Source of the DNA: an uncultured Candidatus Saccharibacteria bacterium
GTDB lineage: Bacteria; Patescibacteriota; Saccharimonadia; Saccharimonadales; UBA10212
Direction: 5' to 3'
DNA length: 64,000 nucleotides
Assembly (NCBI GenBank): GCA_964514575.1
Contig: CAZETJ010000002.1
Location: 1,391 to 65,390, forward strand
Numbering within the stretch: the first letter of the stretch is position 1; every line of letters starts with the position of its first letter. Below, one piece after another: positions 31,045 through 62,507 of this stretch. Under the pieces are notes generated by a model. It was not told where the DNA came from and ran no database searches. It saw only the letters and a list, made by a program, of their open reading frames with translations. The position numbers and the translations under genes are program-made.

Positions 31045-31163
31045 AACCCAATTTTGCAAATCGGGGGTCTAGTAACCGTTTACAAAATTGAGAGGAGCGA
31101 CATAGCGCTAAGCCGAAGCTTTTACGAAACAGTAAAACGAGGAAAGCGCGTAAGTCGCGACGA
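31045..31163 (+). ncRNA. Structured tRNA 5' leader, copy A
   Basis: P0 31052-60/31079-87; box GAGAGGAG 31090-97; P1 GCGAC 31097-101 / GTCGC 31154-58; TAAGCCGAAGC; P2 31120-25/31132-37; GACGA 31159-63. Confidence 0.6.
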
Positions 31164-31241
31164 GGGCCCATAGCTCAGCCTGGTTAGAGCAGCGGCCTTT
31201 TAAGCCGCGTGTCGTGGGTTCAAATCCCACTGGGCCCTCCA
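31164..31241 (+). tRNA. tRNA-Lys (UUU)
   Basis: Cloverleaf folded by hand. Anticodon loop CUUUUAA. CCA encoded. Confidence 0.9.
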
Positions 31242-37663: not shown

Positions 37664-37740
<77 letters not shown>

Positions 37741-37765
37741 GCTTAGGCCGTGACTCCAGCTTCCG

Positions 37766-37788
37766 TAAAACAGCGGGAGCTGTTTTAG
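37766..37788 (+). terminator. Hairpin TAAAACAGC ggga GCTGTTTTA
   Basis: 9-bp stem with a T-run, 25 nt after the tRNA. Confidence 0.6.
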
Positions 37789-37963
37789 TTTCAGCTTCCA
37801 CACGTCCTTACGCTTAACAAAACTGGAAGAATCTGCAAGCAGGATCTTCCAGTTTTGTGCAGAACCAGTAGGATGTATCGTTGCTGCTTTTCCATCCGGC
37901 TTATCCTCAAGCCGGATAGGCAGGGAGTTAGGACCACCTGCGGTATCCAGGTGAGGCGCAAGG

Positions 37964-38459: not shown

Positions 38460-38571
38460 CCCCGCAAAATTTATTTTGTGGGGAGAGGAGAAGCAGCGAT
38501 AAGCTGAAGGAGCGAACAACTGAGACAAGGGTTGGTCGCCTCCGCAAGCTGACAGCTTGCTTCGACGACGA
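38460..38571 (+). ncRNA. Structured tRNA 5' leader, copy E
   Basis: P0 CCCCGCAAAA 38460-69 / TTTTGTGGGG 38474-83; GAGAGGAG 38483-90; P1 GAAGCA 38490-95 / TGCTTC 38558-63; GACGA 38567-71. A TAGAAT -10 lies at 38431-36. Confidence 0.6.
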
Positions 38572-38646
38572 CGCGGGGTGGAGCAGTAGTAGCTCGCATG
38601 GCTCATAACCATGAGGTCGCAGGTGCAAATCCTGCCCCCGCTACCA
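38572..38646 (+). tRNA. Initiator tRNA-fMet (CAU)
   Basis: CGCGGGGTGGAGCAG start with an unpaired 1:72 position (C:U). CCA encoded. Confidence 0.88.
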
Positions 38647-55396: not shown

Positions 55397-56851
55397 ATGG
55401 CAATACTGGATTTTTTCACCGGTAGGGCTGCCGCTGAGGCTAAAAAAGAACTGGCTCAGGCTAAAAAAGAAGCAGCTGAAACAGTTCGAAAAGCTGAAGA
55501 AGATGCAGCACGGCGCATTGAAGAAATGCGCAAGGACGAACAAAAGCGCCGAGGCGAGCTGAAGGATATTGAAGCCCGTTTGCTTGGTCGCGAGGAATCG
55601 CTCGACAAGAAACTAGACGAGCTGGATAAGCGCAGCGAGAACCTTCGCAAGTCCGAGGGCGAAGTCGAGGATCTAAAAAACGAAATTCGCGACATTCGCG
55701 GAAAACAGCAGGAGAAGCTGGAAAAGATCGCTAAGCTGTCTAAGACCGACGCGACTGACAAGCTCATGCAAATGACTGAGCGTGACATTAAGAACGACTT
55801 ACTCGGTCTGGTCAATAAACTACAGAACGAAGCTCGCGAAAATGCCGAGGAACTTTCGGCCACGATTTTGGCTACGACTATGGAACGCATGGCTTCCGAA
55901 GTTACATCGGAGCGTACCGTCACGGCCGTTAAGCTGGAAGACGAAGAAATGAAAGGCCGGATCATTGGCAAGGAAGGCCGCAACATCCAGGCCTTGCAAA
56001 GAGCTACTGGCGTCGACATCTTGGTGGATGAAACCCCAGGAATGATTGTGCTGTCTAGCTTTGATCCTGTCCGCCGCGAGATTGCTCGCCAGGCCATGGA
56101 GATGCTACTAAAAGACGGTCGGGTTCACCCAGGCCGGATTGAGGAAGTTGTCGAGAAGGCGCAGAAACAAGTTCAAAAAGACGTCATCCGAGCCGGCGAA
56201 GATGCCGCACGTGAAGTCGGACTGGTGGGAATACCACCAGAAATTCTGCAATTGATGGGCGAGTTAAAGTACCGTACCAGCTATGGGCAGAACGTTCTTA
56301 AGCACTCAGTCGAGATGGCTCAATTGGCTGGAGTACTAGCCGAAGAACTTGGCGCCAATGTCAAAACTGCCAAATATGCTGCCTTTACTCACGACATGGG
56401 CAAGGCTCTATCGCACAAAGTCGAGGGTAAGCACCACCACATCACTGGCGAGATGCTGCGCAAATACGGCGCCCCGGAAGAAGTTGCTGAGGCAGCCGAA
56501 CAGCACCACGACGATATGGAATCAACAAGTATCGAGGGCCTAGTAGTTCGTGTTGTAGACGCCATCAGCGGCGCCCGGCCAGGCGCCCGCAACGTCAGCG
56601 CCGAGAACTTTGCCGAGAGAATGAAAGACTTGGAAAATACCGCGCTTGGATTCGACGGCATCGAAAAGGCCTATGCAATTAGTGCTGGCCGTGAAGTTCG
56701 AGTTTTTGTGCAGCCGAAATCCATCGACGATTTACAGGCTATCAAACTGGCTCGAGACATTGCCAATAAGATTGAATCGACAATGCAGTACCCAGGGACC
56801 ATTAAGGTCAACGTTATCCGCGAGACTCGTGCTATCGAATTCGCTAAATAG
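55397..56851 (+). CDS. rny: Ribonuclease Y
   Basis: AGGAGG SD. Coiled coil, KH domain (GRIIGKEGRNIQ) and HD domain (HDMGKA). Confidence 0.95.
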   Translation: MAILDFFTGRAAAEAKKELAQAKKEAAETVRKAEEDAARRIEEMRKDEQKRRGELKDIEARLLGREESLDKKLDELDKRSENLRKSEGEVEDLKNEIRDIRGKQQEKLEKIAKLSKTDATDKLMQMTERDIKNDLLGLVNKLQNEARENAEELSATILATTMERMASEVTSERTVTAVKLEDEEMKGRIIGKEGRNIQALQRATGVDILVDETPGMIVLSSFDPVRREIARQAMEMLLKDGRVHPGRIEEVVEKAQKQVQKDVIRAGEDAAREVGLVGIPPEILQLMGELKYRTSYGQNVLKHSVEMAQLAGVLAEELGANVKTAKYAAFTHDMGKALSHKVEGKHHHITGEMLRKYGAPEEVAEAAEQHHDDMESTSIEGLVVRVVDAISGARPGARNVSAENFAERMKDLENTALGFDGIEKAYAISAGREVRVFVQPKSIDDLQAIKLARDIANKIESTMQYPGTIKVNVIRETRAIEFAK

Positions 56852-56881: not shown

Positions 56882-57298
56882 ATGATCAAGGTTGTCCTAT
56901 TTGATTATGGTGGAGTGTTGTCGCGGCTGTTGGTGCCGCAATACAAAGTCCGGCGGCTGGCCAAAGCCCTGCACAACCAGGGCATCAGCGTGGCGGTTCT
57001 GTCCAACATGAACTCACTTGGCGGCTGGGGTATCCGAATGCTGGGTCTGTACCACGGATTCGCGCCAGTGATTCTGTCCTATCAGGAGGGCGTCCGCAAG
57101 CCCGACCCGCGCATCTACCAAATAGCGATTAAAAAACTTGGGGTTAAGCCCAACGAAATTCTGTTCGTAGATAATTTGGTCGAAAATGTAAGGGCGGCGC
57201 GGGCAGGAGGGATACAAACGCTGCACGCTGATGGCACCAAAAGACTAATCTCTCGGCTCAAGACAATCTTAGCTAAAGAAAACAACCTAGTGCTATAA
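56882..57298 (+). CDS. HAD-superfamily hydrolase (short)
   Basis: VVLFDYGGVL ... KPDPRIYQ ... LFVDN. Confidence 0.7.
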   Translation: MIKVVLFDYGGVLSRLLVPQYKVRRLAKALHNQGISVAVLSNMNSLGGWGIRMLGLYHGFAPVILSYQEGVRKPDPRIYQIAIKKLGVKPNEILFVDNLVENVRAARAGGIQTLHADGTKRLISRLKTILAKENNLVL

Positions 57299-57316
57299 TT
57301 ACCCCTGTTCTGGCAA

Positions 57317-58189: not shown

Positions 58190-58340
58190 GACTAGAGTTT
58201 ATACTACCTCAGCGGTTAAAAGGTAAACTTTTGATATATAGCTTTGCGCCGAGAAAACTATTTTTCTACAATGACTGTACTTTCTCGGGCTCTGCATATA
58301 ATTCTCACTTATCGCTCGAATTATAATTACCTCCTAAATA

Positions 58341-58456
58341 AAACCAATTTTGCAAGCTAGGCACCGATGCTTGTAAAATTGAGAGGAGTAACTTAGCACT
58401 AAGCCGAAGCTTTTGATTCACTAACCAAAACGAGGCAAATGCGCAAGTTATGACGA
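58341..58456 (+). ncRNA. Structured tRNA 5' leader, copy B
   Basis: P0 58348-57/58369-78; GAGAGGAG 58381-88; P1 TAACTT 58389-94 / AAGTTA 58445-50; TAAGCCGAAGC 58400-10; P2 58411-30; GACGA 58452-56. Confidence 0.65.
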
Positions 58457-58533
58457 CGGGGTGTGGCGCAGTTGGCTAGCGCGCCGCGTTTGGGACGCGG
58501 AGGCCGGAGGTTCGAGTCCTCTCACCCCGACCA
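58457..58533 (+). tRNA. tRNA-Pro (UGG)
   Basis: Cloverleaf folded by hand. Loop UUUGGGA. CCA encoded. Confidence 0.9.
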
Positions 58534-58546
58534 GAACTAAGCTACA

Positions 58547-59194
58547 ATGTTTATAATGCTTGCGTTATTTGCTTGTTTGGTGGGGGTGCTGTCAATCCTA
58601 TTGGTGGCCGAAGCGCTCTGGCGCGGCGGCCACTTGAGGTATGAAGACCATCGAAAATTTGTGCACATTGGTGTCGGCATTTTTGTAGCATTTTGGCCAT
58701 GGATCATCGGCTGGCATTGGATTGAGCTGCTAGGCCTGGCGATGGCCTTTGTAGTTTTGGTCGATCGACAGATTCGAGTTTTTCACTTTTCAGTCAGACT
58801 CAATCGCCAGACATATGGTGATATTTTGTTCGCACTAGCTATTACAGCTTGCGCCCTGCTAGCTAACAACAAGATAATTTTCGCGCTCGCTATATTAAAT
58901 CTATCCGTAGCCGACGGTGTGGCCGCCATTATTGGCAATCATTTTGGCCGGCACTTTCGGTACAAAGTTTTTGGCCAAACCAAATCGGTGATCGGCAGTA
59001 TGGCTTTTTGGCTTGGCTCTATGTTGATACTGGGCATCGGACTACTTTTCTTCCAAGTTAATCCGCACCACTACCTGTGGATGCTGTTATTCTTACCGCC
59101 AACTCTAACCTGGCTAGAGAACTTCGCGGTTTACGGAACGGACAACCTGGCTGTCTCGCTGGCTGTAGTTGCCACCCTCCGACTCATAAATTAG
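58547..59194 (+). CDS. Polyprenol/dolichol/phytol kinase-like membrane protein (CTP-transferase 1 superfamily)
   Basis: SVADGVAAIIGNHFGRH...GQTKSVIGSMAFW. The ATG lies 13 nt after the tRNA CCA. Confidence 0.55.
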   Translation: MFIMLALFACLVGVLSILLVAEALWRGGHLRYEDHRKFVHIGVGIFVAFWPWIIGWHWIELLGLAMAFVVLVDRQIRVFHFSVRLNRQTYGDILFALAITACALLANNKIIFALAILNLSVADGVAAIIGNHFGRHFRYKVFGQTKSVIGSMAFWLGSMLILGIGLLFFQVNPHHYLWMLLFLPPTLTWLENFAVYGTDNLAVSLAVVATLRLIN

Positions 59195-59723
59195 ATGAAC
59201 CAATAAGGACGCCGGCGAGAAAAACTAGCCCTCCGCCGACAATGACCTGCAACGCGGAGATCCAGGCTTTCATTTCAAAGAAGCGGTAGCGAATGTAGGC
59301 AATGACTAGGAGTTCTATGCCCACGACCAAGTAGGCTAGGGTTAGGGCGGTGTGAATGTTGCCGCTCAAGAAGGGCAGGGTATGAAATATGCCACCCAGA
59401 AAAGTCATGGCGCCGATTATCATGCCGCGGCGTACAGGCCGTCCGCGACCGGTAAGTTCGCCAGTGTCGCTTAAGCCTTCGGCAAAAGCCATTGAGATTC
59501 CAGCACCGACGGCAGCCGACAGGCCGATGACAAAAGCAAAGTGCGGTTTATGGGATGCGAAAGCAGCGGCAAAGATTGGCGCCAAAGTTGAGATCGAGCC
59601 GTCAATCAAACCAGCCAGACCCGGTTGAACAGTTTGCAGAACGAAGCGATTGTATTCTGCTTCAGTCCGCGGTGTTTTACCGCCAAGCTTAATCGGCCAA
59701 GAAAATGGGTTAATATCTGTCAT
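59184..59723 (-). CDS. VIT-family membrane protein (no N-terminal cytosolic domain)
   Basis: GLIDGSISTLAPIF ... GISMAFAEGLSD ... Start trimmed to MTDINPF, 9 nt after the tRNA-His CCA. Confidence 0.7.
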   Translation of the reverse strand: MTDINPFSWPIKLGGKTPRTEAEYNRFVLQTVQPGLAGLIDGSISTLAPIFAAAFASHKPHFAFVIGLSAAVGAGISMAFAEGLSDTGELTGRGRPVRRGMIIGAMTFLGGIFHTLPFLSGNIHTALTLAYLVVGIELLVIAYIRYRFFEMKAWISALQVIVGGGLVFLAGVLIGSSNL

Positions 59724-59732
59724 AAAAATTGC

Positions 59733-59810
59733 TGGGGCGAACGATGGGTCTTGAACCCACGACCTCCGGGACCACAACCCGGCGCTCTAACCAACTGAGC
59801 TACGTTCGCC
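59733..59810 (-). tRNA. tRNA-His (GUG) with an encoded G-1
   Basis: Cloverleaf folded by hand. Loop UUGUGGU. An extra 5' G opposite C73. CCA encoded. Confidence 0.9.
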
Positions 59811-59925
59811 TCGTCGGAACTTGCGGTTTTGTCTCGTTTTGCCAAATTGGCAAAAGCTTCGACCTGAACCTATGTTCCTCCTCTCAATTTTACAAGCAGC
59901 AATGCTTGGCTTGCAAAATTGGTTT
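59811..59925 (-). ncRNA. Structured tRNA 5' leader, copy C
   Basis: GAGAGGAG within 59878-88; P1 GGAAC (59878-74) / GTTCC (59820-16); P2 palindrome 59837-55; GACGA 59815-11. Confidence 0.65.
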
Positions 59926-59964
59926 AGACCAAAGACGCCGTAATTGTATCACCAACAGAGGTGA

Positions 59965-60207
59965 TTACCTAGCTATTCTTAATTTCTTTATTACTCTAGC
60001 GAGACCCGAGAGCCCAATCTCAGGCGGTACGTCGGTTTCCTCAACACGTTCACCAAATCTGTCATATCTTTTTATAGCCGGAACAACTTCTTCAGCAACT
60101 CGGCCATTACTGTAAACTAGCATCCCATCGATGTGGGCGGGCGCAAAACTCTCGGCACGCGGTAGAAGTGTGCCCTCGAGTCTAAGTTGTTCTCCAACTC
60201 CAGCCAT
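59965..60207 (-). CDS. Hypothetical protein, 80 aa
   Basis: ORF only, no SD. Lies 52 nt downstream of tRNA-Arg. Confidence 0.35.
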   Translation of the reverse strand: MAGVGEQLRLEGTLLPRAESFAPAHIDGMLVYSNGRVAEEVVPAIKRYDRFGERVEETDVPPEIGLSGLARVIKKLRIAR

Positions 60208-60259
60208 TTAAGTTAATGATAACTATAATCTGTTTATATAAAAAGTGCGGAATTAACAA

Positions 60260-60336
60260 TGGTACCCCGGGCAGGACTTGAACCTGCGACCTTGAGCTTA
60301 GAAGTCTCCTGCTCTATCCAACTGAGCTACCGGGGC
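60260..60336 (-). tRNA. tRNA-Arg (UCU)
   Basis: Loop CUUCUAA. Has a G1:U72 wobble and a weak anticodon stem (G27:A43, A31:G39). Confidence 0.8.
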
Positions 60337-60337
60337 T

Positions 60338-60412
60338 TGGTGCGGGTGGAGGGAATCGAACCCTCATCCTGAGTTTGGAAAACTCATATACTAGCCGCTG
60401 TACGACACCCGC
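60338..60412 (-). tRNA. tRNA-Gly (UCC)
   Basis: Loop UUUCCAA. CCA encoded. Lies 1 nt from tRNA-Arg. Confidence 0.88.
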
Positions 60413-60460
60413 TCGTCAAAGCACGGCTTAAGCCTATACCGCTCCTCTTAATTCTACAAG
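60413..60460 (-). ncRNA. Minimal tRNA 5' leader, copy D
   Basis: TTGTAGAATTAAGAGGAGCGGTATAGGCTTAAGCCGTGCTTTGACGA followed directly by the tRNA. Confidence 0.5.
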
Positions 60461-60495
60461 GTAGAGAGTACACTGAGAATAGAAAGGGGAGAATT

Positions 60496-60834
60496 ATGGA
60501 TAAAGATTTTTTGGTGGTTACAACCACCACAAACGACATACCAGGCTACAAAATAACCAAAGTCTACGGCGAGGTTTTTGGCCTGATAGTCAGGAGCCGC
60601 AACCTATTTAGTAATATCGGAGCGGGCTTCCGCACGGTTTTTGGAGGAGAAGTTCGTGGCTACACCAAGCTTTTGAGTGACAGCCGCGAGCAGGCCATTG
60701 AGCGAATGTGCGAAGAGGCTAAGTCGAGAGGCGCCAACGCTGTTGTCGCTATGAACTTCGATTCTGGCGGCATGGGCAATATCATGAACGAGGTCGCCGC
60801 TTACGGCACGGCCGTCAAAGTCGAAAAAATCTAA
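60496..60834 (+). CDS. YbjQ/UPF0145 family protein
   Basis: GGGGAG SD. GYKITKVYGEVFG...GGEVRGYTKLL...ANAVVAM. Confidence 0.88.
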   Translation: MDKDFLVVTTTTNDIPGYKITKVYGEVFGLIVRSRNLFSNIGAGFRTVFGGEVRGYTKLLSDSREQAIERMCEEAKSRGANAVVAMNFDSGGMGNIMNEVAAYGTAVKVEKI

Positions 60835-62357
60835 GCTTCGTGAGCAATAGTGATGTGGGCACCGAGCGAATTAAGCCGCTCGGCCAAATCTTCATACCCG
60901 CGGTTGATCGTATAAATATTACGCAACATCGATGTGCCTTCGGCAGCCATCATGCCTATTAAAAGAATCACTGCTGGTCGTAAGCCACTCGGTGCCACCA
61001 CCTCGCCGGCCCGCCATTTAGTTGGACCATTAATAAAAACGCGGTGCGGATCAGCCAGCTCAAGATCGACGCCGATCTTCTTCATCTCGGTATACATCAG
61101 TGCCCGGTCTTCGTAAACCCAGTCATGAATCAAGGTGCGGCCCTTGGCTACCGCGGCAATTGGCACAAAGTAGGGCAGGTTATCGATATTGATTCCTGAA
61201 CCTCCCGCCAGAGGGTGTAGTTTTTCCTCTGGCGCCTTAAGCTCGCCGTTATGTTTATAGATTGTAATATCCGCTAGGTCAGCATAGCCATTGTCAGATT
61301 TGTATGGCTCGCTGAGTTTTATGCGCAGCCCCATCATCTTAAGTTTGAGCAGTTCCAAATCAAGAAAATCAATCGGCGCTCGCTTGATGGTGATCTGCGA
61401 GTTGGTTGTAACGGCTGCTGAAATAAATGTCATGGCTTCCACTGGATCTTCGGTTGGCGTATAGCTTACATTTCGTTTAATGGTTTTGGTGCCGCGGATT
61501 TTCAGCGTTGGTGTGCCAATGCCCTCGATTTTAACGCCCAGTTTCTGCAGGAAGAAACAGACATCCTGGACCTGGTAGTTGGCGCTGGCCTGTTTAATAA
61601 TGGTCTGGCCTTCGATTCGCGCGGCAGCCAGTATGGCATTCTCGGTCGCCACGTCGCTCATTTCATACATGACTACTGGCGAAGTCGGTAACTTGCGGCG
61701 GACAGAGATTTGGTAATGGCCATTATGGGCTTCGATCTGGGCGCCAAATTCAGCTAGGGCATAAATATGCGGGATGATTGTCCGCCGGCCCAGTTCGCAG
61801 CCGCCGGCATAGGGAATTTTAAATTCGGAATGTTCATGCATTAGCGCTCCGGTCAGCAAAATAACGATGCGAGTTTTACGGGCAGATTCTTTATTCATTT
61901 GATCGAGCCTGAGCGTAGTTGGTGGTTTGATTTCCAGCTCATTGCCAGGCAGCCACCGGATATGGACTCCGATGCTAGTTAAGACTTCGATGATCCGGTT
62001 CACTTCTTCAATTCTTGGCACGCGTTTAAGCCGGGTGGTGCCGTGGTTCAAAAGGCTGGCGCAGAGCAGGGCGACTGCGGCGTTTTTGGAAGTTTTAACT
62101 TCGATCTCGCCGGATAGCGAATGGCCGCCTTCAATCTGAAGGTTAATGCCGCTGCTACCCAAAGAGATAATCTGCTTATTAAGTACTCTGCTAATACGAC
62201 CGATTGTCTCCAGGCTGAGGTTTTGTTTGCCGTGCTCCATACGGTTGACGGCCGACTGGCTAGTGCCGAGCTGCCTGGAGAATTCTGCCTGAGTTAGGCC
62301 CTTCTCTTGTCTAATCTGTGCAATCAATTGGCCTATTTGCTGGTTTGTTTCCTGCAT
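60831..62357 (-). CDS. murA: Fusion of an XRE-type HTH domain and UDP-GlcNAc 1-carboxyvinyltransferase (MurA)
   Basis: N-terminus IRQEKGLTQAEFSRQLGTSQSAVNRMEHG. Then the MurA fold: KTSKNAAVALLCASLL and the AGGCELGRR active-site Cys loop. Confidence 0.8.
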   Translation of the reverse strand: MQETNQQIGQLIAQIRQEKGLTQAEFSRQLGTSQSAVNRMEHGKQNLSLETIGRISRVLNKQIISLGSSGINLQIEGGHSLSGEIEVKTSKNAAVALLCASLLNHGTTRLKRVPRIEEVNRIIEVLTSIGVHIRWLPGNELEIKPPTTLRLDQMNKESARKTRIVILLTGALMHEHSEFKIPYAGGCELGRRTIIPHIYALAEFGAQIEAHNGHYQISVRRKLPTSPVVMYEMSDVATENAILAAARIEGQTIIKQASANYQVQDVCFFLQKLGVKIEGIGTPTLKIRGTKTIKRNVSYTPTEDPVEAMTFISAAVTTNSQITIKRAPIDFLDLELLKLKMMGLRIKLSEPYKSDNGYADLADITIYKHNGELKAPEEKLHPLAGGSGINIDNLPYFVPIAAVAKGRTLIHDWVYEDRALMYTEMKKIGVDLELADPHRVFINGPTKWRAGEVVAPSGLRPAVILLIGMMAAEGTSMLRNIYTINRGYEDLAERLNSLGAHITIAHEA

Positions 62358-62507
62358 TTGCCTCAATAGCTTACCACATATGGTAAGCCCCCTCAATCTC
62401 TCTTAATCCTTACCGAGTGGCTTTAGGTGAGTAGTGATACAATAATTTAATGATCTAGCTACCTCAACTTCACGAAATATATAAAGTGAAATAGAGGAGT
62501 TATTAAA

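Follow-up and report, generated by a model that had tools for sequence, protein, structure and literature searches.

The five leaders and their common fold

The DNA analyzed here, referred to below as the window, is a stretch of 64,000 nucleotides (nt) from contig CAZETJ010000002.1 of an uncultured Candidatus Saccharibacteria bacterium with a genome of about 1 Mb. It has a G+C content of 49% and contains nine transfer RNA (tRNA) genes, as called with ARAGORN and Rfam. The encoded proteins assign it to Candidatus Saccharibacteria (TM7, Patescibacteria). Five tRNA transcription units, those of tRNA-Lys (UUU), an initiator-type tRNA-Met, tRNA-Pro (UGG), tRNA-His, and tRNA-Gly (UCC) followed by tRNA-Arg (UCU), are preceded by copies of the same leader (Table 1). 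The leader is transcribed and forms a structured RNA with a length of about 115-125 nt, located immediately 5′ of RNase P substrates in Saccharibacteria. An initial annotation, drawn from the letters of the window, had located the five leaders, and the tRNA calls as well as the upstream sequences agree with it. The modules that it listed are present in the leaders, its pairings for the helices P1 and P2 are correct, and the three other tRNAs that it named as lacking the full motif are indeed preceded only by a TATAAT-type promoter and a few leader bases.

Table 1. Coordinates of the leaders, their parts and the adjoining genes in the window, and of orphan and antisense-abutting copies at other loci (L numbers)
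Feature	Position	Strand	Remarks
Candidate promoter, tRNA-Pro (UGG) unit	58322-58335	+	TATAAT then TACCTCCT; 17 nt upstream of P0; predicted start
Leader copy B (reference), before tRNA-Pro (UGG)	58345-58456	+	
P0 hairpin, copy B	58345-58381	+	13-bp stem CAAUUUUGCAAGC/GCUUGUAAAAUUG, one G·U pair, 11-nt loop
Linker A, then purine box GAGGAG, copy B	58382-58388	+	Nearly invariant in the unbiased genome set A4
Long irregular hairpin, copy B	58389-58450	+	RNAfold, RNAalifold, pair counts, mutual information
UGACGA, positions -6 to -1, copy B	58451-58456	+	Ends at expected RNase P cleavage site
tRNA-Pro (UGG)	58457-58533	+	CCA encoded; ARAGORN, Rfam
Leader copy A, full type 1, before tRNA-Lys (UUU)	31049-31163	+	R1 105.5 bits, E 4e-23
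tRNA-Lys (UUU)	31164-31241	+	Directly 3′ of copy A
Leader copy E, before initiator-type tRNA-Met	38460-38571	+	R1 24.3 bits, E 7e-4; fold z-score -4.1
Initiator-type tRNA-Met (CAU)	38572-38646	+	Directly 3′ of copy E
Leader copy C, full type 1, before tRNA-His	59811-59921	-	R1 123 bits, E 3e-27
tRNA-His	59809-59733	-	G-1 = 59810
Minimal leader, before tRNA-Gly (UCC) and tRNA-Arg (UCU)	60413-60496	-	R1 22.1 bits, E 2e-3
Orphan leader	L092:2717-2839		Identical to L109
Orphan leader	L189:585-707		
Orphan leader	L193:3548-3672	-	
Orphan leader	L162:607-727		
Antisense-abutting element	L110:322-450	-	
Antisense-abutting element	L110:580-710	-	
Antisense-abutting element	L121:5802-5930	+	
Antisense-abutting element	L125:2897-3025	-	
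Antisense-abutting element	L123:1338-1456	-	

The leader folds into two hairpins with a single A between them. From 5′ to 3′, the order is P0, the A, the purine box GAGGAG, P1, J1, P1b, J2, P1c, J3, P2 and the 3′ strand leading back to CGACGN. P0 is a hairpin of 12-15 bp with a nearly invariant CAA...UUG base. The long irregular hairpin P1-P1b-P1c-P2 that follows is interrupted by three conserved purine-rich internal loops, J1 (RUA/GUAN), J2 (AR/A), and J3 (GAA/GA). In copy B, its helices are UAACUU/AAGUUA (P1), GCA/UGC (P1b), GCC/GGC (P1c), and UUUUG/CAAAA (P2). The sequence GAGAGGAG or AAGAGGAG occurs seven times in the window, and five of these occurrences lie inside the five leaders.

Some details of the initial annotation have to be modified. 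P0 is a hairpin, as described, and a longer one, since it has 13 bp in the Pro and His copies and reaches the purine box. The boxes TAAGCCGAAGC and CGAGGCAAA are conserved and are partly paired (GCC/GGC) around the conserved internal loops. GACGA occupies positions -5 to -1 of the tRNAs except in front of tRNA-His, where it is found at -6 to -2 (ending at 59811) because the encoded G-1 comes next; its end is still the expected cleavage site. Finally, open reading frames had been denied to the leaders; trivial, mechanically called ones do overlap them, and none is conserved.

Copy E has a GC-rich P0 (CCCCGCAAAAU/AUUUUGUGGGG), an unchanged core and a longer, different apical domain. The minimal Gly copy has its own P0 (UAAUUCU/AGAAUUA, 60496-60449), which had been overlooked. 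It also retains AAGAGGAG, P1, AUAG...CGU, and UGACGA, and carries a hairpin, GGCUUAAGCC, in place of the apical P1c/J3/P2. RNAfold predicts the same long hairpin in four copies, with z-scores of -3.6, -1.5, -3.65, and -4.1. A covariance model, R1, was built from 15 copies; with filters off, the Lys, Pro, and His copies score 105-123 bits (E 1e-23 to 1e-27).

The initial annotation had argued for a functional structured RNA shared by different tRNA identities, and strong covariation in wider alignments sustains this. Alignment A3 was made with MAFFT and not fitted to the model, and alignment A5 contains 96 distinct sequences fitted to it. As a control, pair partners were slid along the alignment, and for A5 500 shuffles were also made. 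In A3, standard pairs amount to 92.5% vs. 34-49% after sliding, and compensatory changes on both sides are found in 21 of the 32 pairs. The corresponding values for A5 are 94.5% paired vs. 27-48%, with 552 double-change cells vs. 46-124, and none of the 500 shuffles reached the observed values. Across alignments, compensatory changes concern 21-27 of the 32 pairs. P0 shares in this, with both-side changes in 9 of its 12 pairs and 96.7% of cells paired in A5. The top pairs by mutual information all lie within helices, apart from the J1 pair 86/184, in which R86 and N184 covary; the same ranking led us to reject a pseudoknot or a loop-loop contact. G·U pairs exceed A·C pairs by about 6:1 overall (148 to 26 in A5, 46 to 8 in A4), hence the fold belongs to the tRNA-sense strand.

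Not all parts of the leader are equally constant. At least three alternative forms of the apical domain are known (type 1, type 2, and fMet type), and the domain is absent from the Gly copy. As the rest is kept while the apical domain can be replaced or lost, the constant core is the junction. The sequences of the J1, J2, and J3 loops and of the P0 apex are also strongly conserved across paralogues and genomes, and the tandem-G·A module GGAG/CGAC is found again in one P0 apex subtype.

At the base of the long hairpin, a proposed pairing goes beyond the initial annotation: the purine box probably pairs with GACGA, judging from the letters of the aligned copies. Limited but consistent observations suggest that GAGGAG can join with CGACGN, the six bases at the end of the leader, in a G-C/G·A helix ending at the cleavage site, in the order G-C, A·G, G·A, G-C, A·G, and G·N. 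The innermost pair, which joins the last G of the box to the base preceding GACGN, is C-G in L063, A-U in L080, and G·U in the Pro-UGG copy. Base -1, opposite a G, may be A, U, or C; where the box has an A at the facing position, as in only two copies, base -1 is C. Among 96 metagenome copies, 14 have G·G as the innermost pair, so that this closing helix is weaker than the other helices.

Transcription and distribution in relatives

In this clade, tRNA genes have a promoter of the form TATAAT-yACCyCTGTT, which lies 20-65 nt upstream of P0, at variable distance, in many members of the family. The same type of promoter directly precedes leaderless tRNAs, and it occurs 86 times in 1.37 Mb of sequence. 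At other loci, a preceding tRNA ends 8-27 nt before P0, and in one case (L122) a leader is inserted between tRNA-Ile and tRNA-Ala downstream of 16S rRNA. The initial annotation had also considered that only promoter DNA might be conserved. This does not hold, as the promoter is upstream of P0, leaders are found between tRNAs of like orientation, and the covariation of P0 itself includes G·U pairs.

More generally, it is very improbable that the leader is a transcription-level element, whether promoter DNA, an attenuator or riboswitch, or a put- or boxA-like RNA acting in antitermination or pausing. The element is specific to stable-RNA genes, its two hairpins with a one-base joint are reminiscent of the HK022 put RNA, and P0 of the Pro, His, and Gly copies fits a sigma-70-like TTGCAA-N18-TAAAAT. 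However, the family does not conserve such a -35/-10 arrangement, since the 3′ arm of P0 alternates between AAAAUUG and AAUUUUG by paired flips (half has AAUUUUG) and the loop varies from 11 to 22 nt; P0 as a sigma-70 promoter was also rejected because G·U pairs take part in the covariation between its arms and a canonical promoter is present further upstream. Moreover, there is one leader per tRNA inside polycistronic units, no terminator or alternative fold is found before the tRNA, and an exact junction with the first tRNA base would not be needed. In our reading against the boxA consensus, boxA-like sequences are absent from the alignments.

Two observations concern the promoters themselves. 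In tRNA promoters, such as that at 57294-57308 of the window, TATAAT-(T/C)ACC(C/T)CTGT(T) is shared and the tRNA starts 1-6 nt after the motif, so that the stretch between the -10 element and the start is unusually conserved. An inverted-repeat operator around the -10 element was considered and is not supported, both halves being found in 0 of 86 promoters.

The family was followed in relatives by two routes. First, 80 Saccharibacteria genome loci were collected via the gene located between the Pro and His tRNAs, the closest relatives of which are from Saccharibacteria and Saccharimonadales genomes. In 17 of these 80 loci, leaders lie no more than 4 kb from this marker gene and precede His, Pro, Arg, or Gly tRNAs. 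Second, a pattern scan of metagenomes gave at least 117 loci. According to R1, true leaders number about 26 in the window and the genome loci, 99 in 100 metagenome loci listed and 16 in the remaining loci. The family comprises more than 130 copies before genes for tRNAs and transfer-messenger RNA (tmRNA) in Saccharibacteria genomes and metagenomes, and the covariance-model search proposed in the initial annotation does find the motif in many related genomes.

Of the 125 model hits listed, 100 have GACGN next to the first base of the tRNA, and in 11 of 11 tRNA-His cases GACGN adjoins the encoded G-1. The downstream tRNAs fall into about 30 anticodon classes. The initial annotation had not reached this diversity, nor the tmRNA, which directly follows a leader in at least eight distinct loci (Rfam confirms two, L126 and L169). 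What the downstream genes have in common is that all are RNase P substrates. Such known substrates follow more than 85% of the true copies, and among the loci examined no copy was seen directly before 16S, 23S, or other stable RNAs. The leader and a tRNA-shaped RNA meet precisely at the mature 5′ end of the latter, where RNase P cleavage is predicted. In one study, all circularized genomes of the Candidate Phyla Radiation, including two of Saccharimonadia, contain an RNase P RNA, often a divergent one (PMC8172020).

Exceptions in L103, L132, L178, L186, and L168 look, in our reading, like intron-bearing or decayed tRNAs. In L132 (4599-4846), L178 (2485-2591), L103, and L186, sequences following the leader start like a tRNA and are then interrupted; GGGAGCCAACUCUUG is common to L132 and L178. 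These are probably intron-containing tRNA genes missed by ARAGORN and Rfam. Group I introns are documented in tRNAs of Patescibacteria (PMC13011429). Two contigs (L012 and L072) with typical Saccharibacteria leaders and the same gene order were deposited as Candidatus Binatia and Verrucomicrobiia and are probably mis-binned. In addition, a second conserved class of structured leader (GGGAAA(A)G..CAGC ... hairpin ... GAGAAAAACCGYAGGUUUGUCUC), absent from the window, directly precedes some tRNAs (L066, L171, L089, L147, L004, L006, L014, L017, and L018). It stands upstream of a P0-type leader in L089 and L147 and just before the 5′ end of 23S rRNA in L122 (2590-2660).

The patchy distribution across lineages and tRNAs, together with orphan copies, might also betray a selfish or relic repeat, that is, a miniature transposable element or a hairpin element derived from IS200/IS605 that spread to the ends of tRNA genes and has no host function. 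Copies are found at either end of tRNA genes with the GACGN end always toward the gene, and hairpins of single-stranded DNA would also tolerate G·T pairs. This genome was followed for about 10 kb beyond the right end of the window, where, about 2.3 kb past that end (L222:13840-13861), ccaattttgtaag precedes tRNA-Lys (CUU) and looks like a leftover 5′ arm of P0, the rest of the leader being lost. We nevertheless give this explanation little credence. Paralogues within one genome differ mainly by compensatory changes in stems, and orthologous tRNA-His leaders share P1 across distant genomes, which indicates old vertical inheritance. Junction sequences are wholly different between tRNAs, so that there is no DNA target site, and no transposase is associated with the leaders in the window. 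A phage origin was rejected: 24 pattern matches in viral contigs are due to chance, and none of them scores as a leader.

In the window, the genes adjoining leaders are unrelated housekeeping genes (VIT1, YbjQ, MurA-like, ComEC, and DivIC). The MurA-like enolpyruvyl transferase (EPSP_synthase family; 60831-62396, minus strand) carries an N-terminal Xre-type helix-turn-helix, an unusual fusion. Just upstream of tRNA-Pro (CGG), a gene for RNase Y with RNase_Y_N, KH, and HD domains (55397-56851, plus strand) makes available an endonuclease of the Gram-positive type that could cut single-stranded spacers 5′ of P0. Beside the tRNA at 37664-37740, a perfect 14-bp palindrome, CAAAACUGGAAGAU...AUUCUUCCAGUUUUG (37818-37857), resembles P0, with no purine box behind it. 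Either a bidirectional terminator or the remains of a leader directed toward the tRNA 3′ end may be present here. The corresponding match (37747-37857, minus strand) was left out of the leader count because only this P0-like palindrome, without the purine box, is present.

What the leader may do

The 5′ leaders of tRNAs are normally regarded as spacers that are discarded and not conserved. In contrast, this genome, about 1 Mb in size, invests about 115 nt of folded, conserved RNA before about half of the tRNA units of the region, and relatives do so before tmRNA as well. We tentatively favor, at somewhat less than even odds, the idea that the leader is a cis-acting cassette for processing and insulation, released by RNase P. 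RNase P would cut after GACGN, which would create the mature 5′ end, keep G-1 on tRNA-His and release the leader as a compact RNA. Where precursors are polycistronic or embedded in operons, the 5′ flank would be held in the fold of the cassette and thereby kept from mispairing with the acceptor strand or the CCA end. It would also offer RNase P a uniform, optimized sequence from -6 to -1, and hence a uniform cleavage rate for a chosen subset of stable RNAs, with the folded leader ending as a closed platform exactly at the bond to be cut. A role at the cleavage site is supported by the exact junction with the mature end, by the invariant core with its variable apex, by the indifference to tRNA identity and by the lack of a terminator and of a leader-trailer helix.

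The constancy of the end point may also be read as a cut directed by the leader itself, independent of RNase P, after GACGN and whatever follows, by a new ribozyme or by a dedicated nuclease for which the leader is the handle, in the manner of Cas6, which cuts at a hairpin base. The same end point is indeed found before tRNAs, G-1 of tRNA-His and tmRNA, in orphan contexts and at antisense tRNAs, and the conserved core at the cut site is purine-rich. If true, tRNA, tmRNA, and some antisense RNAs would mature without RNase P in Saccharibacteria. We consider this improbable: most true copies precede known RNase P substrates, none was seen before 16S, 23S, or other stable RNAs, a tRNA with a 5′-OH would be an unusual product, and base -1 varies between A, U, and C. 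The presence of RNase P RNA in the clade (PMC8172020) points the same way. Known self-cleaving ribozymes (hammerhead, twister, pistol, hatchet, and those like hepatitis delta virus) were rejected, Rfam giving no match at E <= 10. In our reading, essential positions of the hammerhead core, those corresponding to C3, U4, and A14, do not fit.

Several observations weigh against the cis-acting cassette. Seven of the 13 tRNAs in this genome region have short ordinary leaders instead, so that RNase P cleavage as such does not need the cassette. From what is generally known of RNase P substrates, a helix closed up to -1 would be expected to slow the enzyme rather than to help it. A pure insulation role does not explain the conserved sequence of the apical internal loops. 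Intact leaders also occur without a recognizable RNase P substrate downstream (L092/L109 and L189/L193), and in L123, L125, L110, and L121 the GACG end of leader-like elements adjoins the CCA end of an opposite-strand tRNA gene or overlaps it by a few bases.

These last points bear on another possibility, namely that the leader itself is the product. It would be a small RNA present in many copies, or an RNA-protein scaffold, that acts in trans and borrows the promoter of the tRNA or tmRNA and a 3′ end made by RNase P; a protein bound via the conserved G·A-rich loops would be an example. We regard this as the nearest rival of the cassette, though less probable. It is favored by the strong conservation of J1-J3 and of the P0 apex, the repetition of the GGAG/CGAC module in one apex subtype, the exact 3′ boundary, which it predicts, and the high copy number (five in 64 kb, the whole genome being about 1 Mb). 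A promoter of their own is found at orphan leaders, and in the orthologous pair L189/L193, where the gene order prmC, leader, convergent htrA is kept, the fold is maintained by compensatory changes. Copies that abut antisense tRNAs, which could still form a cloverleaf-like shape, also speak for it. On the other hand, an apical domain that is replaceable or absent (type 2, fMet type, Gly copy) would be odd for a single trans partner, variation is lowest in the cleavage-site junction, and many Saccharibacteria have no copy near the same tRNAs, as with all but 17 of the 80 genomes. Gene conversion among paralogues could also preserve orphans without selection.

Some features of these loci may be mentioned in their own right. 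In L092, L189, and L193, a convergent protein gene, for trigger factor or an HtrA-like protease, runs into the leader and ends with ...Ser-Ser-stop, encoded by the reverse complement of UUACGACGA. In L125, the apical hairpin, when read on the complementary strand, resembles an intrinsic terminator for the tRNA operon.

If the leader is a processing and insulation cassette, the presentation of RNase P substrates and the maturation of stable RNAs may be organized differently in Saccharibacteria, which would be new. If it acts in trans, a new abundant non-coding RNA may be hiding in precursor leaders, which would be new as well. The family is large, defined by covariation and ends at a bond that can be tested biochemically. 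It is also of practical use, since its covariance model flags tRNA genes that standard tools miss, such as intron-interrupted ones.

Comparison with known systems

The initial annotation had not assigned the leader to any described class. Rfam 15 agrees: its only hits in the window are tRNAs, and nothing overlaps the leaders even at E <= 10. No description of the leader was found in the literature, the coverage of which was incomplete. We regard the leader as a new family of RNA whose genomic role is new as well, its function being putative.

The T-box (RF00230) resembles the leader in that both are structured 5′ leader RNAs tied to tRNA biology. However, T-boxes precede genes for aminoacyl-tRNA synthetases or amino-acid metabolism, carry a specifier codon and operate a switch between terminator and antiterminator, all of which the leader lacks. 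It had been argued from the start that the leader is not a T-box. Indeed, RF00230 gives no hit in 58280-60480 even at E <= 10, a terminator is absent, and leaders show no excess of the codon read by the tRNA that follows (66 observed vs. 70.6 expected). The leader also shows no complementarity to its own downstream tRNA.

Other resemblances were followed and discarded. GGAG opposite CGAC gives the order G-C, G·A, A·G, G-C of a kink-turn, and J3 (GCC-GAA-GC/CGA-GGC) resembles Kt-7. At the base of the leader, a canonical stem with a 3-nt bulge is nevertheless missing, and the would-be 2b A, which is base -1, may be A, U, or C, a variation that excludes a kink-turn in the sole fitting register. 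The 2b/2n pair of J3 is C-G and not A·G. A Shine-Dalgarno sequence with a short open reading frame was rejected because neither a start codon nor a reading frame is conserved after GAGAGGAG. The Lys copy resembles the region of 23S rRNA bound by L11; in our reading, the other copies do not conserve this resemblance.

Leaders and spacers of rRNA operons, with boxB-boxA-boxC and RNase III stems, are likewise conserved non-coding elements that flank stable RNAs in precursors. The Saccharibacteria leader differs from them in that it lacks a boxA-like sequence and a long perfect duplex on which RNase III could act, and in that its 5′ flank does not pair with the 3′ flank. For a helix between the 5′ flank and the 3′ trailer, the calculated duplex (-8.1 kcal/mol) does not exceed shuffled pairings (-8.9 kcal/mol).

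Ordinary leaders of pre-tRNAs and pre-tmRNAs occupy the same position 5′ of the mature end, including the shift by one base where G-1 of tRNA-His is kept. They are short, unconserved, and mostly unstructured, whereas the Saccharibacteria leader is about 115 nt long, is conserved in a phylum-wide group, contains at least 32 covarying pairs, and has invariant positions -5 to -2. A further set of RNAs is matured by tRNA-processing enzymes: MALAT1-mascRNA, the plant dicistronic tRNA-snoRNAs, the tRNA-linked C/D box RNAs of Nanoarchaeum, and the 3′ external transcribed spacer of Escherichia coli leuZ. As in the leader, a second RNA there shares the transcript of a tRNA and a cut at the tRNA boundary sets its end; a small genome is a further feature in common with Nanoarchaeum. 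In contrast, the companion RNA of Saccharibacteria lies 5′ of the tRNA and occurs as many paralogues before many tRNAs and tmRNA, with an activity that is putative. Ordinary RNase P leaders, together with the non-coding RNAs whose ends are made by tRNA processing, are the closest analogies to the leader, and by this comparison the likeness to both is functional only.

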